This document shows, one piece after another, positions 8,317 to 36,096 of a stretch of DNA of 64,000 nucleotides (position 1 is its first letter; each line of letters starts with the position of its first letter). The translations under genes were made by a program, and so were the position numbers. The notes under the pieces were generated by a model that saw only the letters and a list, made by a program, of their open reading frames with translations, was not told the origin of the DNA and searched no databases. Source of the stretch: a virus; UHGV virus genome UHGV-0293664; one strand, written 5' to 3'.

Positions 8317-8790
8317 TTAGTCAACCTGAACCCAACCGCCTGCTGTCTTTTTAAACATTCTTTGGTTATCACTACCTCTGAAGGGTTTTTTGGTTGGGTT
8401 ATCTTTCTCGTACTTACCATCCATAATGTAATCGACACTATCTTTAATGTGATCGGGAACCTCTTCAAACAAATACCCTGTGTACACCCAGATAGTTTTT
8501 GTGTTGCCGAAGCGTTCACGGATAGCGCGAATAATCGAGTACATACCATCAATATTATAAGGCGCTAAAGGTTCGCCACCGCATAATGTAACGCCAGTAA
8601 TATGTTTCGGCTCTACAGAGTGAAGTATACTCTCAATAGTGTCATTTGTTAACGGTTCCCCTTTAGCTGGTGACCAAACACTTTTGTTTTGGCAACCGAC
8701 GCAGTGATGTGGGCAACCAGAACAGAACACCGTTGTCCTAATGCCTGGGCCGTCAACCATACTACACTCTATAATATTAACAACATTCAT
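8317..8790 (-). CDS. nrdG: anaerobic ribonucleotide reductase activating protein (radical SAM)
   Basis: CSGCPHHCVGCQN radical-SAM CxxxCxxC cluster; size and position next to nrdD. Confidence 0.8.
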   Translation of the reverse strand: MNVVNIIECSMVDGPGIRTTVFCSGCPHHCVGCQNKSVWSPAKGEPLTNDTIESILHSVEPKHITGVTLCGGEPLAPYNIDGMYSIIRAIRERFGNTKTIWVYTGYLFEEVPDHIKDSVDYIMDGKYEKDNPTKKPFRGSDNQRMFKKTAGGWVQVD

Positions 8791-32505: not shown

Positions 32506-32856
32506 ATGAAAGATGGGGATAAGCTGCTATATCTTAAAGTCCCCCTTGAAATACTATCTATGTCAAAAGTTTTGAATGACACAACTGGGGAGGTTGTTGT
32601 TCTTGACTTATATGACAAGATCGTATACTGCTACCTGCACAACTGGTATAAGCTTGGAGGAAATTCACGCTTCACACCCAGCACAAGGAAAATTGCAGCA
32701 GATGTAGGGATAAAGAAAACAAAAGCAGCAGCGTGCGTTAAAACTTTAGAATGTGCAGGAGTGGTTGAAATATCCACACAAGGGAGAGGTAAAAGATGCA
32801 CATTTTCCAAAGTTTTGCCACCAGAAGAGGTTATTCGAATGTCAACAACTGATTAG
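32506..32856 (+). CDS. putative HTH DNA-binding protein
   Basis: STRKIAADVGIKKTKAAACVKTLECAGVV helix-turn-helix-like segment; immediately upstream of the iteron array. Confidence 0.4.
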   Translation: MKDGDKLLYLKVPLEILSMSKVLNDTTGEVVVLDLYDKIVYCYLHNWYKLGGNSRFTPSTRKIAADVGIKKTKAAACVKTLECAGVVEISTQGRGKRCTFSKVLPPEEVIRMSTTD

Positions 32857-32910
32857 ACCAGTAAAAACTTAAATATCTGTACTATAAGGATTCGTATGTT
32901 TTATGTTCGC

Positions 32911-33015
32911 CATGGAACAGACACTGTTAACTGTCCGTGATACGGACACTACTGTCCGTCACGCGGACACATCTGCCCGTAATACGGACACTAACTGTCC
33001 GTGATACGGACACAT
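32911..33015. repeat. tandem array of about 4 inverted-repeat units (GTCCGT-N4-ACGGAC), iteron-like
   Basis: Units at 32931-32950, 32951-32972, 32973-32993, 32994-33015 preceded by an ACAGACACTGT palindrome. Confidence 0.6.
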
Positions 33016-33140
33016 AAAGAATATAACTAAAATAACTAAATAATAAAAATAAAAAGATCTAGTACTTATGGTACTAAAGTACATATACTTAACTTATGTA
33101 GAATATACTAGATCCTAAGTACCATGTTTTAAAATTATTA
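33016..33140. other. AT-rich tract
   Basis: About 125 nt of very high A+T between the iterons and a GC-rich island. Confidence 0.5.
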
Positions 33141-33144
33141 CTTA

Positions 33145-33430
33145 CTATAGGTAGTGTCGGCCCTTCATTGGCACTCGCCTACGAGGGGCGAGATGCCGGG
33201 CCTCCATGGTGCACACAATAACAGAAGTGCATACATGCAGGTCTGTTAACATGTGTGGGAGCGAAGCGATAGCGCAGGCCAAAGGCCGAGCACTGATGTG
33301 GACCACCGACGAAAGCTTGCCAGCGCCGTAAGGAGTCGGTTGAGAGTCTCCCGCGCGAGCTTGGATGAAGTTTATGTGTGGAAACGGACAAGAAGGCACC
33401 TAAATCGCTCCACAGCTATATAAACTGCAC
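33145..33430. ncRNA. GC-rich non-coding island; candidate structured RNA
   Basis: Local G+C far above the flanks; the only ORFs are two overlapping minus-strand frames with non-protein-like composition; hairpins such as CTCGCC-tacgagg-GGCGAG. Confidence 0.3.
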
Positions 33431-33517
33431 CAAGTAGGGCAATCACATCAGTTTGATAGAAAAGCTCGTTACAAAGCGATACAGTGAGTTTTTCTATAAC
33501 TTGAAGAGGAGGCTGCT

Positions 33518-34096
33518 ATGAGTTCACGCAAAGATTCCCGTGAAAAGATTGCAAAACGTTATCAGAATGAAGAACAGATGGAGAAAACTTTCAAGTGGAA
33601 GCCAGGTTTCCAGCGTAATCATTCTAACGCTCGTGATCGTAAGCATCCGGATAAGTGGTTAACACCGCCAAATGATGGCATGCAGGCTGGTGATGAGAAG
33701 GAGCTGTCACCTGGAAAAGATGGCAACTACATTCGCACTAAGGAAGCAGGTCCAAAGGATGACAGTTATCTTGTAGATAAGGTTCTTGACGGTATTGATG
33801 TAGATGTTGACACTGCACGAAACCTTTTTCTTGGTTGGTATCGCACAGGGTTTTTCGACATCAAGGCTATTCGTCGTGTTTGTGATATTAAAAAGTCTGC
33901 CTATGATGATGACTCCCTACATCGCACTCTGAGACAATACTCGGAGAGATACGGTCATCCAGTTATCACTCTTGACGATATTAACGAAGTGATGTATCAT
34001 GCAGAGGTTGTTGCAGGTAGATTCGGTGATGCATACCTGGACATCCTTTCTGCAAAGGATGAGGTAATGTTGAATAAGATTTACTATGAACGCTGA
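33518..34096 (+). CDS. hypothetical protein (192 aa)
   Basis: ORF with SD GAGGAGG upstream. Confidence 0.45.
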   Translation: MSSRKDSREKIAKRYQNEEQMEKTFKWKPGFQRNHSNARDRKHPDKWLTPPNDGMQAGDEKELSPGKDGNYIRTKEAGPKDDSYLVDKVLDGIDVDVDTARNLFLGWYRTGFFDIKAIRRVCDIKKSAYDDDSLHRTLRQYSERYGHPVITLDDINEVMYHAEVVAGRFGDAYLDILSAKDEVMLNKIYYER

Positions 34097-34295
34097 GGAG
34101 CGCTTAATGAACAATCTGGTAGCAAAGAACTGTAATAGGTTTAACAAGTCTGCGATTCACACTGACAGGAAAAAGAGCTGGTCTCCTGACATCGACGATG
34201 AGCTTGAGAGTTACTTTGAAGACCTGGTCACTAATGCAGATGAGATTGCGATTAAAGAATACGCAGACAGGCGAGATAAGGCCGGAATCTGTTGA
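34086..34295 (+). CDS. hypothetical protein (69 aa)
   Basis: ORF overlapping the previous stop. Confidence 0.3.
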   Translation: MNAEERLMNNLVAKNCNRFNKSAIHTDRKKSWSPDIDDELESYFEDLVTNADEIAIKEYADRRDKAGIC

Positions 34296-34320
34296 CAAAA
34301 ATAATCTTACCTGATAAGAT
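34292..34320 (+). promoter_or_regulatory. sigma70-like promoter
   Basis: TTGACA (34292-34297), 17-nt spacer, TAAGAT (34315-34320). Confidence 0.5.
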
Positions 34321-34371
34321 CTGCAATATGATGTGATACAATTTTAACTTACGAGGTCTACAGGTAATGTT

Positions 34372-34614
34372 ATGTTTAAGGTTAAGCTCGTTTTTCGTTC
34401 CATGAATGAGGATTATTTAGAAGATGAAGGTGAATTTCGTGCACTAGATGATGCAATAGATTTTGCCAACGACTTAGCTTGTATGAATACTGGTTATGGG
34501 TTATGCTGTTGGGATGGTGGTGTTCAGATTGGCGATAGCAAGATCTTCTACTTCTACCCAGAGCCGGATAACAAACAAATTAAGTATGTTTTATTTATTT
34601 GTGCTTTACAATGA
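34372..34614 (+). CDS. hypothetical acidic protein (80 aa)
   Basis: ORF downstream of the promoter. Confidence 0.4.
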   Translation: MFKVKLVFRSMNEDYLEDEGEFRALDDAIDFANDLACMNTGYGLCCWDGGVQIGDSKIFYFYPEPDNKQIKYVLFICALQ

Positions 34615-34639
34615 GGTTGTTTTCGTGTATCATGATGAA

Positions 34640-34904
34640 TATCCAATTTAAAGATGAATTTGATGGCTTTATCTCCGGATGCTTTGAAACAGGGTTCGGA
34701 GAAGACTGAGTTCCCCTTAGAGGGCTTGATAGTGCACCACACTCAAAATGGTAGGGGCAGCCAGCACATGACGATGTGACCCCAGCCAACCTGTAATAAG
34801 GTCGAGCCCAAGTGCGGTAATGGGTATAGCTGGTAACCCACTTGTTGGGTCTTGTTGGTCCAGGACGCTGGGCAAGTCGCAGGGAACACCACCCTGCGGC
34901 GAAC
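34640..34904. ncRNA. non-coding GC-rich stretch; possible structured RNA or leader
   Basis: Only short overlapping minus-strand ORFs; hairpins GGGTATAGCTGGTAACCC and CAGGGaacaccacCCTG. Confidence 0.25.
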
Positions 34905-34933
34905 TTGACAATCAGTATTTGCTATGATAAAAT
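34905..34933 (+). promoter_or_regulatory. sigma70-like promoter
   Basis: TTGACA (34905-34910), 17-nt spacer, TAAAAT (34928-34933). Confidence 0.5.
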
Positions 34934-34961
34934 CCACCTATCACGTGATAATGGAGGAAAC

Positions 34962-35300
34962 ATGGCGGATACAACTAAAAAGCGTCGCCGTAGAGGCAGA
35001 CCTCTGAAAGAGGAGTCCAACGCCATTCAGCTAGAGAAGAACATCCTTGATATGAAGGAATCTTTTATAGCGATGGTTCCAGAAGCTCACAAAGTTTTAA
35101 GAGAGCTGATGTTGGACCCGAAAACCAAACAAAATATTCGTCAAAGCATTGCAGAGTATGTTCTTGATAAGGCAGAACGAATGCAGGAAGAATATGATGA
35201 GATGTTTGGTGAAGAGGAAGAGGTGGTAGTGGAAGAGGCTGAAAAACCAGCACCCTTTATGCCATTTACCACAGAAATACAGCCTGTTGGCAATAGTTAA
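34962..35300 (+). CDS. hypothetical protein with basic N-terminus and acidic C-terminus
   Basis: ATG after GGAGGA; KKRRRRGRP then EEEEVVVEEAE. Confidence 0.45.
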   Translation: MADTTKKRRRRGRPLKEESNAIQLEKNILDMKESFIAMVPEAHKVLRELMLDPKTKQNIRQSIAEYVLDKAERMQEEYDEMFGEEEEVVVEEAEKPAPFMPFTTEIQPVGNS

Positions 35301-35396: not shown

Positions 35397-35471
35397 GCCC
35401 TGTTAGCTTAGTGGATAAAGCAGCGGCCTTCTAAGCCGTTGACACTGGTTCGAGTCCAGTACGGGGTGCCA
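35397..35471 (+). tRNA. tRNA-Arg (anticodon UCU)
   Basis: Hand-folded cloverleaf: acceptor GCCCTGT/ACGGGGT (two G-U), D-stem GCTT/AAGC, anticodon loop CTTCTAA, T-arm ACTGG-TTCGAGT-CCAGT, CCA encoded. Confidence 0.65.
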
Positions 35472-35601: not shown

Positions 35602-35689
35602 GGTGAGTTAATTCCGTAGGGGTAGCGGGGCAGACTGTAAATCTGTTATCATTGCGATTCGGGTGGTTCGACTCCATCACTCACCACCA
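35602..35689 (+). tRNA. tRNA-Tyr (anticodon GUA), long variable arm
   Basis: Acceptor GGTGAGT/ACTCACC, anticodon arm GCAGA-CTGTAAA-TCTGT, long variable arm, T-loop TTCGACT, CCA encoded. Confidence 0.65.
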
Positions 35690-35992: not shown

Positions 35993-36089
35993 GCTAGGTA
36001 AGCCCTTTGGCAAGGGCGAGGATTTTTAATCCTGAAAATAGACGAGGTAGTCGTTGAATACATAGGTGGTTCGATTCCATCACCTAGCA
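35993..36089 (+). tRNA. atypical tRNA-like gene (97 nt; anticodon uncertain, possibly UUU)
   Basis: Perfect 7-bp acceptor GCTAGGT/ACCTAGC, D-stem GCCC/GGGC, T-arm GGTGG-TTCGATT-CCATC, but only a 4-bp anticodon stem AGGA/TCCT (loop TTTTTAA), a 30-nt extra region and no full CCA. Confidence 0.45.
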
Positions 36090-36096
36090 CCTTTTT

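Follow-up and report, generated by a model that had tools for sequence, protein, structure and literature searches.

We analyzed a 64,000-nt stretch of viral DNA (UHGV virus genome UHGV-0293664; here called the window) and focused on a 347-nt intergenic gap at positions 34615-34961. Comparative analysis indicates that this gap is neither junk nor a dead gene and that it holds a structured RNA on the plus strand. The RNA family is apparently undescribed, and its members occur in T4-like phages, the Vequintavirinae, a Phapecoctavirus relative, phage Ivi, and uncultured phages. We regard it as very likely that the element is a functional structured RNA of some kind. With somewhat better than even chances, in our judgment, the gap encodes a small noncoding RNA that acts in trans by binding a host factor and sequestering or redirecting it. 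A preliminary description, made from the sequence without database searches, had pointed out the stretch and proposed that it may encode a small RNA or a structured leader. That overall observation was confirmed, and the small-RNA interpretation is supported by compensatory base changes and by the genomic contexts of the element.

The window is ~97.5% identical to Escherichia phage rV5 and to more than 100 other Vequintavirus genomes. The gap lies between the counterparts of rV5 ORF75 (34372-34614) and ORF74 (34962-35300), and its length agrees with the roughly 350 nt first reported. The other features noticed at that time were also recovered. GC content is 0.557 in 34700-34900 and 0.478 in the whole gap, compared with 0.433 for the window. 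Four mutually overlapping open reading frames (ORFs) of 62 to 64 amino acids (aa) each run across the gap on the minus strand (34554-34742, 34595-34789, 34717-34911, and 34743-34937). The hairpins are present as well: the plus-strand RNA of the gap is more stable than shuffled sequences (z = -2.20, matched by 1 of 100 shuffles), and the fold of the minus-strand RNA is no better than shuffles (z = -0.03). The near-consensus promoter, TTGACA-N17-TAAAAT at 34905-34933 with an added TG extension, was the top match of a 4-kb scan (11/12 consensus positions). The same scan returned 12 promoter-like sites, close to the shuffle expectation of 9.3 ± 2.9, and the GenBank record of rV5 labels this site promoter P74 (of ORF74). 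The stretch therefore does end in a promoter, as had been claimed, but this terminal promoter would serve the downstream gene and not the RNA.

To characterize the distribution of the element, we used the gap alone as a BLAST query, which matched 962 phage records. Among these, 119 Vequintaviruses matched over most of the gap, and the other ~840 records, mostly T4, T2, RB69, and T4-like phages, matched over just ~45 nt (window 34782-34826) at 91 to 98% identity. The hosts of the T4-like carriers belong to Escherichia, Shigella, Klebsiella, Yersinia, Salmonella, Citrobacter, and Enterobacter. In these phages, the site is the noncoding interval upstream of a vs.8 homologue, and the preceding gene varies (denV, ipII, ipIII, or genes for other internal head proteins); the copy in T4 is in the vs.8 leader (64,856-64,906, complement). 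Pattern scans, a covariance model (R1), and additional BLAST searches identified further carriers: a second subtype of the Vequintavirinae (L010, L011, L014, and L045; here subtype 2), Shigella phage SF1-1 (the Phapecoctavirus relative), several contigs of 46 to 70 kb, the 45-kb phage Ivi, and divergent metagenomic phages (L046, L056, L061, L062/L064, and L077). The pattern scans of contigs fixed only 15 bases, and among the matches listed most were due to chance, with a handful of real metagenome loci. R1 scored 47 to 78 bits across lineages and found a single copy in the 64-kb window (34778-34828; 72.1 bits, E about 8e-20).

The core is near-identical between these groups, and the flanks are unrelated. 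Between sub-lineages, the core is more than 90% identical, compared with 37 to 44% for Vs.8 and 66 to 71% for ORF74/75. Its spread is patchy; among Phapecoctavirus-like phages, only five records hold most of the SF1-1 version. The core was absent from the 5,426 complete Escherichia coli genomes searched, and an origin as a host copy or prophage was rejected on that basis. Together, the searches show that no fewer than four unrelated enterobacterial phage groups share the predicted core and that every copy has the orientation of its neighboring genes or tRNAs.

The comparisons below show a conserved predicted fold in which a variable hairpin, P2, lies inside a helix, P1, and a three-way junction comes next, made of a closing helix (Pa), P3 with a GUARNA loop, and P4. 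A pseudoknot is predicted to join the P1-enclosed region to the tail after the junction. In the window, where all of these features lie on the plus strand, P1 was assigned by homology (GGGG 34754-34757 with CCCC 34780-34783). It encloses the 5' strand of the pseudoknot (CCAGC, 34761-34765) and P2, also placed by homology (CACAU[GACG]AUGUG, 34765-34778; hairpin loops in brackets). The three-way-junction core, located by R1 and BLAST, spans 34786-34823. It comprises Pa (CCA 34786-34788 with UGG 34821-34823), P3 (ACCU[GUAAUA]AGGU, 34789-34802), the unpaired junction strand CGA (34803-34805), P4 (GC[CCAAGU]GC, 34806-34815), and a second unpaired junction strand, GGUAA (34816-34820). The 3' strand of the pseudoknot, GCUGG at 34829-34833, was again assigned by homology and would pair with CCAGC at 34761-34765.

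The conservation analysis suggested in the preliminary description was run, and it backed the fold with compensatory changes both within and between phage families; these changes show that the predicted RNA fold is under selection. Within the T4-like phages, we aligned 26 distinct copies (alignment A1). Standard pairs occupied 98.1% of 793 cells, compared with 25 to 47% when the 3' partners were slid by one to three columns. Double-sided changes occurred at eight pairs in 54 cells (shuffle mean, 16.8), and the covariation score was 0.234 versus 0.077; the observed values of these measures were attained by none of 500 shuffles. One pair of P1 (AAAGG/CCUUU) is GC in 15 copies, CG in 9, and AU in 1, and one pair of the P2 hairpin is CG in 13, AU in 11, and GC in 1. 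P2 also shows matched one-base deletions that turn CUCA/UGAG into CUA/UAG. Pa, which closes the three-way junction, includes a pair with the types UG, UA, CG, and AU and another that is CG in 23 copies and GC in 3. P3 reads ACCU[GUARNA]AGGU, with GCCU/AGGC in one divergent copy, and P4 is a small hairpin. The counterparts of the P1/P2 region covary at A1 pairs 9-56 and 18-54.

The pseudoknot helix of the T4-like copies joins A1 columns 14-16 with columns 110-112 and crosses P1. All 78 of its cells are paired, with four pair types at one position (CG 13, AU 7, GC 3, and UA 3) and three at another (GC 15, CG 10, and AU 1). RNAalifold located this helix and an extension of P2 independently. An initial pseudoknot model, in which CCCUC of the 5' internal loop paired with the GGG after GGUAA (A1 columns 19-23 with 96-101), was rejected because pair 22-97 was unpaired in 11 of 25 sequences; RNAalifold assigns the bases concerned to the P2 extension. 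A GUAA/UUAC helix proposed by RNAalifold (columns 93-96 with 103-106) was not adopted, since it is invariant and clashes with Pa.

Results from the wider comparison pointed in the same direction. In an alignment of 39 distinct copies from all lineages (A2), 90.8% of cells paired, compared with 28 to 46% when slid. The pair that closes the junction beside P3 is AU in 20 copies, UG in 8, CG in 5, and UA in 5, and it is unpaired in 1 (38/39 paired). Little or no variation is seen in the unpaired CGA and GGUAA of the junction or at G-U-A-x-x-A of the loop. Among divergent members, the junction is kept and the helices are replaced, both in Pa (GCACUA/UA-GUGC, CACU/AG-GUG, and CGCG/CGCG) and in P4 (GCC/GGC, GUC/GAC, and GGC/GUC), and outer closing stems are present in several lineages. 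The occurrence of G-U pairs indicates that the transcribed strand is the plus strand, the same as that of neighboring genes and tRNAs. Between the two Vequintavirinae subtypes, two P1 pairs are exchanged (GGAAC/GUUCC in subtype 2). The subtype 2 P2 is CUACG[GACG]CGUAG, in which four of five pairs are altered on both sides, all of them standard, around the same loop. The pseudoknot likewise differs by lineage: CCAG/CUGG in rV5 and in a relative ~97% identical to the window (L006), GAGG/CCUC or GUGAGGG/CCCUUAC in subtype 2, CGGA/UCCG in the SF1-1 group, and a perfect 6-bp CUCCGG/CCGGAG in Ivi.

Despite this pattern, it could be supposed that the element is a decayed protein gene or a segment of an intact one, such as the annotated hypothetical proteins or a 219-aa T4 Vs.8; we regard this as extremely unlikely. 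Frames of 42 to 102 codons are open on both strands of the gap, several GenBank records place a hypothetical protein there, and RefSeq T4 annotates vs.8 as a 219-aa ORF running through the element. In T4 itself, the frame is open from 26 nt past denV, through the element, and into vs.8. However, this explanation is refuted by the comparative data. An in-frame stop lies between the core and the conserved Vs.8 N terminus in 28 of 32 T4-like copies, RB69-type copies have a 1-nt deletion within the core, and the PHROG profile of Vs.8 starts ~11, not 52, residues ahead of MRTFLTG. In L006, several gap frames are split by frameshifting indels, and in subtype 2 just 12- to 21-aa fragments match, in all frames and exactly at the RNA blocks. 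No open frame of the gap was conserved in these relatives, and conservation that respects a reading frame was not found. An intact protein gene in related genomes, which the preliminary description had named as a finding that would speak for a decayed gene, was looked for and not seen. Coding explanations were thus rejected on account of the stops, the indels in the core, and the lack of conservation of gap frames.

The vs.8 gene model and its leader have two further features. T4 vs.8 (L320 3754-4413; NC_000866 64253-64912, minus strand) is over-extended by 52 codons through the element, and the comparative data put the first residues of Vs.8 at MRTFLTGPYL, which gives 167 aa and agrees with the RB69 annotation. 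In addition, T4-like phages have an extra hairpin, GCCA[AGGAA]UGGC with CCC after it, in the interval from the fold to the ribosome-binding site of vs.8 (L020 1255-1286; A1 columns 165-188), and this hairpin travels with the fold when the cassette precedes ipII-like genes. Its loop resembles a CsrA-type GGA site.

Genomic context argues for a free-standing RNA over a leader, to the extent that transcription units can be predicted. The element lies between tRNA-Thr and tRNA-Gly in SF1-1, on the tRNA strand, and between tRNA-Asn and tRNA-Tyr in L061; tRNA genes occur within a few hundred nucleotides of it in L025, L051, L063, and L062/L064. In L056, the element is past the last gene of an operon, and two intrinsic terminators come next, ahead of genes on the opposite strand. 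In Ivi, the intrinsic terminator of the lysis operon lies ~70 nt upstream and another terminator ~110 nt downstream, and because terminators flank both sides, this copy would form a unit of its own of ~215 nt. Subtype 2 has a predicted promoter for the RNA, CTTGACA-N17-TATACT, 7 nt upstream of a conserved 5' block; its hexamers are invariant and its spacer is variable, and it is stronger than the candidate in the window and different in sequence. A second, strong promoter is found between the RNA and ORF74 in all Vequintavirinae. Klebsiella T4-like phages carry copies before an ipII-like gene as well as before vs.8, and a Karamvirus-like genome has two copies in tandem.

Downstream proteins are unrelated between lineages. 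No vs.8 homologue was found in the window, no ORF74 homologue lies by the element at T4-like or SF1-1-type loci, and a candidate neighbor protein shared between lineages was not found for either Vs.8 or ORF74/75. Pfam and PHROG assign these neighbors no function. As predicted from sequence, several of the contexts cannot be reconciled with a leader that controls one particular downstream gene. The position expected of a riboswitch or leader holds only within the T4-like phages and fails in the SF1-1 group, L061, L056, Ivi, and the Vequintavirinae. Of the two options in the preliminary description, the small RNA is therefore supported and the leader fits less well, because a separate promoter sits between the fold and ORF74 and because copies elsewhere are flanked by tRNA genes, are enclosed by two terminators, or come last in an operon.

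Within the window, the candidate promoter of the RNA is TTTACA-N17-TATCAT (34605-34633, plus strand; 10/12 in the consensus scan). It overlaps the stop codon of ORF75 (34612-34614) and has a predicted start at ~34640. Downstream, an 8-bp hairpin, UCUCCGGA...UUCGGAGA (34672-34702), appears in both minimum-free-energy and centroid folds of the plus strand; it is specific to the subtype of the window, and in subtype 2 the promoter occupies its position. Both Vequintavirinae subtypes share an identical 21-nt block, AAAGATGAATTTGATGGCTTT (window 34651-34671; L011 about 8410-8440). In the window it lies inside the putative 5' region of the RNA, and in subtype 2 it forms an 8-codon ORF, MKDEFDGF*, after AAGGAGAGG and just upstream of the RNA promoter. 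The 5' module at 34713-34743 consists of a CCC[CUUAGA]GGG hairpin, a CUUGAU linker, and an AGUG[CACCA]CACU hairpin, and it is invariant in both subtypes (alignment A3). Subtype 2 has a second copy of this module after the core, made of CCC[AUAGA]GGG, CUUGAAAGUGC, and a hairpin.

On the 3' side, the terminator scan identified a weak terminator-like module at 34836-34859 on the plus strand, the hairpin ACCCA[CUUGU]UGGGU followed by CUUGUUGGU. In the alignment, it falls opposite the second CCC[AUAGA]GGG-CUUG module of subtype 2, and it is a possible 3' end of the RNA. A strong hairpin, CGCAGGG[AACACCA]CCCUGCG (34878-34898), precedes the promoter of ORF74, and the two form a composite (34878-34933, plus strand) that would drive the downstream gene. 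Subtype 2 has the same layout in other letters, GCUGG[AGACGGA]CCAGC and then TTGACA-N17-TAAACT. Beyond the RNA on the same strand lie the Shine-Dalgarno sequence GGAGG (34953-34957) and ORF74 itself (phrog_3330; 34953-35300 together), and a tRNA gene cluster begins downstream at 35397.

Several observations weigh against a structured, free-standing RNA. The segment 34640-34862 alone folds unremarkably (thermodynamic z = -0.96), and because this signal is weak, the support rests on comparison and not on folding energy. The fold was derived in part from the same sequences that were used for counting, and the A1 sequences are phylogenetically related to one another; for these reasons, multiple pair types and the slide control carried more weight in our assessment than the shuffle counts did. 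Variation in P3 and the junction is slight, and their similarity between families may partly reflect recent horizontal transfer instead of long-term selection. A cross-lineage test of the pseudoknot, based on the longest helix, barely separated cognate from noncognate strands (15.5 versus 14.4, P = 0.018), and no weight was placed on it. The upstream promoter and terminator in the window are moderate consensus matches only. Finally, the T4-like copies are without a promoter or terminator of their own and are always in a 5' untranslated region, and they add their lineage-specific 3' hairpin near the ribosome-binding site, which fits a cis role there. A cis effect is therefore possible in T4-like phages.

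For the trans-acting RNA, we propose a folded core of ~120 nt in a whole unit of up to ~220 to 260 nt. In the window, it would be transcribed from the candidate promoter at 34605-34633 and would end either at the weak terminator-like hairpin (34836-34859) or at the strong hairpin (34878-34898). The promoter at the end of the gap would be separate and would drive ORF74 and the tRNA cluster. Once made, the RNA would be free and stable, and its invariant junction and P3 loop would present a sequence-specific surface. That surface may bind a factor common to all hosts, which could be a protein, an enzyme, or an RNA and is less likely to be a small molecule; the bound factor would then be sequestered or redirected. 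The case for a specific partner supplied by the host comes from the unpaired junction bases and P3, which are near-invariant across families that share only enterobacterial hosts. Because the element recurs by tRNA clusters and in variable accessory regions, the target would most likely be tRNA or translation biology, or a host defense that attacks it. A bolder proposal, and in our view an unlikely one, is that the element represents a new class of phage RNA with a biochemical activity of its own, hidden in T4 vs.8 and horizontally mobile: a decoy for an anticodon-loop nuclease or another tRNA-directed defense, a sponge for an immune signal, or a self-cleaving ribozyme. The idea of a nuclease decoy came from the invariant CCUGUAA of P3, which presumably copies the anticodon loop of tRNA-Tyr, a resemblance that serves as a lead only.

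Rather than acting in trans, the fold could be a processing module in cis, that is, a new self-cleaving ribozyme or a point of entry for RNase P, III, or E of the host, which cuts between cistrons or tRNAs and leaves the fold without a function after cutting. Such a module would account for the unrelated downstream genes. It would also fit the constant co-orientation of the element at the boundaries of genes or tRNAs, the T4-like copies without their own promoter or terminator, and the arrays in the SF1-1 group, in which units are flanked by long inverted repeats resembling processing stems. A compact junction with invariant unpaired nucleotides and a pseudoknot is, moreover, the usual anatomy of small ribozymes. 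We nevertheless doubt this explanation and give it a low probability. No known ribozyme model matched, even at E ≤ 1 to 10; the junction strands read CGA and GGUAA, without the hammerhead elements CUGANGA, GAAA, and UH; and new classes of ribozyme are seldom found. The subtype 2 and Ivi elements, being transcription units of their own, would have nothing to separate, and the L056 copy comes after the last gene. Another cis-acting option is a regulatory leader, a riboswitch or protein-binding operator controlling the next gene (vs.8 or ipII-like genes in T4-like phages, ORF74 and the tRNAs in the window). A junction with invariant unpaired bases resembles an aptamer pocket. The element is directly upstream of a gene, usually vs.8, in the ~840 T4-like records, where the conserved hairpin GCCA[AGGAA]UGGC stands between fold and ribosome-binding site. 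In the window, UGGGU (34821-34825) can pair with either the upstream CCCA or ACCCA (34836-34840), and ACCCA can alternatively form the terminator-like hairpin, as in the expression platform of a riboswitch. Even so, a leader is quite unlikely to be the general function, given unrelated downstream genes, the strong separate promoter between fold and ORF74 in all Vequintavirinae, and the lack of a match to any riboswitch family. It also sits poorly with copies between tRNA genes (SF1-1 and L061), ahead of terminators and then opposite-strand genes (L056), or enclosed by terminators (Ivi).

The remaining alternative places the function in the DNA, with the fold incidental: a 45-bp target of recombination or homing, or a mobile regulatory cassette. 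The patchy distribution, with five records holding most of the SF1-1 version, the near-identical cores in unrelated flanks, and the tandem copies and varied sites in hyperplastic regions would all be expected of such an element. Shuffling cassettes of a stem-loop plus promoter are known in T4-type phages (PMC2839356, PMC4122927), and the window itself has a composite of this kind (34878-34933). We regard a purely DNA-level function as very unlikely, because compensatory changes keep RNA helices in at least six stems; among them are G-U pairs, which the opposite strand would present as A-C. Furthermore, the orientation to transcription is invariant, the core has no promoter, and conservation peaks in the predicted unpaired junction bases and not in a palindrome. 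Among the ~60 copies examined, we saw neither a reversed orientation nor a clustering of recombination breakpoints in the core. The element may still have an added role in recombination, for which the evidence for an RNA fold leaves room.

Few genomes have been studied as intensively as that of T4, and phage therapy makes wide use of phages of the rV5-like, T4-like, and Phapecoctavirus-like types. In ~960 sequenced phage genomes, a conserved, mobile, structured RNA has apparently gone without annotation. In RefSeq T4, the element is covered by the over-extended vs.8 ORF, and gene models could be corrected in hundreds of records. The presence of the core in T4-like and other phages could not have been seen from the window alone. 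The junction is near-constant while neighboring proteins diverge to 40% identity, which suggests a specific partner, most plausibly a host factor; if so, the element would be a direct handle on the interaction between phage and host. A true decoy, sponge, or ribozyme would be a new type of RNA-based phage function, and a module that only stabilizes or processes transcripts would still be a new, widespread RNA family suited to Rfam.

Other features were recorded near the element in the window and at other loci. At 32928-33150, four direct repeats of 21 to 22 nt (TAACTGTCCGTGATACGGACAC), each with the palindrome GTCCGT..ACGGAC, directly follow an ORF (32506-32856) assigned by PHROG as a replication initiation protein with a helix-turn-helix domain. 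The repeats are followed by a very AT-rich stretch, and the arrangement looks like an iteron-type replication origin. Next to it is another GC-rich noncoding stretch (33150-33440; GC up to 0.55), the first in the window, in which rV5 annotates a doubtful 56-aa ORF78. This stretch was conserved only in the 119 Vequintavirus records and has no cross-family core. Kinship between the two GC-rich stretches was rejected, as they share no repeats, R1 found nothing in 33150-33440, and the first stretch is confined to Vequintavirus. Rfam had no match there either. In the tRNA cluster, Rfam identified a tRNA at 35602-35686 with the anticodon loop CUGUAAA (Tyr), which was missed by ARAGORN and is annotated as tRNA-Tyr in rV5, and ARAGORN reported an odd tRNA with a 4-base anticodon at 35993-36091 that scored just 35.5 bits with Rfam. 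In SF1-1, ~2.5 kb without annotation (L018 80-2642; PQ571307 16803-19365) contains at least 10 tRNA genes in addition to the RNA element. Five IMG/VR contigs of 46 to 70 kb (L025, L026, L035, L051, and L063) have arrays of short units near tRNA genes and around the element, each unit enclosed by long inverted repeats (GGTAAGAGCATTG ... CAGTGCTCTTATC). One array insert has a tRNA T-arm (GCGGTTCGATTCCGC), and the arrays look like cassettes of processed small RNAs.

Comparison with catalogued RNAs yielded no family for the element. The Rfam search suggested in the preliminary description was run: at gathering thresholds, Rfam 15 found only tRNAs in the window, and a permissive scan of 32850-35000 (E ≤ 10) found nothing in 34620-34900. 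Gathering and E ≤ 1 scans of T4, MX01, SF1-1, Ivi, L061, L062, and L045 likewise found nothing at the element. Neither the core sequence nor a description of the element was found in the literature searched, which left most subscription journals uncovered. ARAGORN and the Rfam tRNA model detected the neighboring tRNAs and not the element; P3 is a 6-nt loop on a 4-bp stem, and the element has no T-arm motif. Two further resemblances serve as leads only, namely, to the GUAAUA hexaloop in the L11-binding region of 23S rRNA and to the GUAAGA loop and GCGGUAA of E. coli RNase P RNA. In size (~50 to 120 nt), three-helix architecture, conserved junction bases, and long-range pseudoknot, the element is like riboswitch aptamers and small ribozymes as they are generally known. 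It differs from them in that no Rfam model matched at permissive thresholds and in that its contexts are not those of a cis regulator. For the hammerhead in particular, the junction strands are 0 nt, CGA, and GGUAA, no Rfam hammerhead hit was obtained, and CUGAGUGA...GAAC, a motif of the P2 hairpin in T4-like phages, does not have the arrangement of a hammerhead core.

A closer parallel in setting is provided by the stable RNAs of T4 known as species 1 and species 2 (rnaC and rnaD), whose function is unknown and which are made with the tRNAs. Like these small RNAs of a virulent coliphage, which are annotated within the T4 tRNA gene cluster (NC_000866) on the tRNA strand, the element occurs in or near tRNA clusters in the SF1-1 group, L061, L062/L064, and the Vequintavirinae. 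In contrast, it has no sequence or motif similarity to them, and the T4 copy is 6 kb from the tRNA cluster. Within L320, a 14.5-kb piece of T4 that includes rnaC and rnaD, R1 matched the vs.8-leader copy only. In addition, rnaC ends in a tRNA-like T-arm, which the element is without. Identity with rnaC or rnaD was thus rejected for want of similarity in sequence or structure.

Phages are also known to counter host defenses with RNA, through replacement tRNAs, solitary-repeat RNA anti-CRISPRs, and pseudo-ToxI antitoxin mimics. As generally understood, these are patchy, horizontally mobile RNA genes in accessory regions or tRNA clusters of virulent phages, and they act as substitutes or decoys in trans. 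The element is similar in distribution and setting but unlike tRNAs, CRISPR repeats, or repeat-array antitoxins, so that only the working principle is borrowed. For RNA anti-CRISPRs, the hairpin differs and no Rfam CRISPR-DR hit was obtained. The sequence GAGTTCCCC (34708-34716), which precedes the short CCC/GGG hairpin, equals the opening 9 nt of the type I-E CRISPR repeat of E. coli; subtype 2 has GCGTT or GCGTA instead, and because these 5' bases are not conserved there, we attribute the match to chance.

The last comparison concerns the promoter-early stem-loop (PeSL) cassettes of T4-type phages, which are short, mobile, noncoding elements of hyperplastic regions (Arbiol et al. 2010, PMC2839356; Comeau et al. 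2014, PMC4122927). A PeSL consists of a G+C-rich stem-loop with a near-consensus sigma-70 early promoter directly behind it, and it lies in a variable region (PMC4122927). PeSLs are defined at the DNA or regulatory level, and their sequences differ between pairs of phages (PMC4122927). The composite at 34878-34933 fits this definition, with a 7-bp CGCAGGG/CCCUGCG stem that ends 6 nt before TTGACA-N17-TAAAAT. Its layout is exactly that of a PeSL, and subtype 2 repeats the layout with other sequences. The RNA core, in contrast, is a promoterless, multihelix junction with a pseudoknot, is backed by covariation, and extends beyond the T4-type phages.

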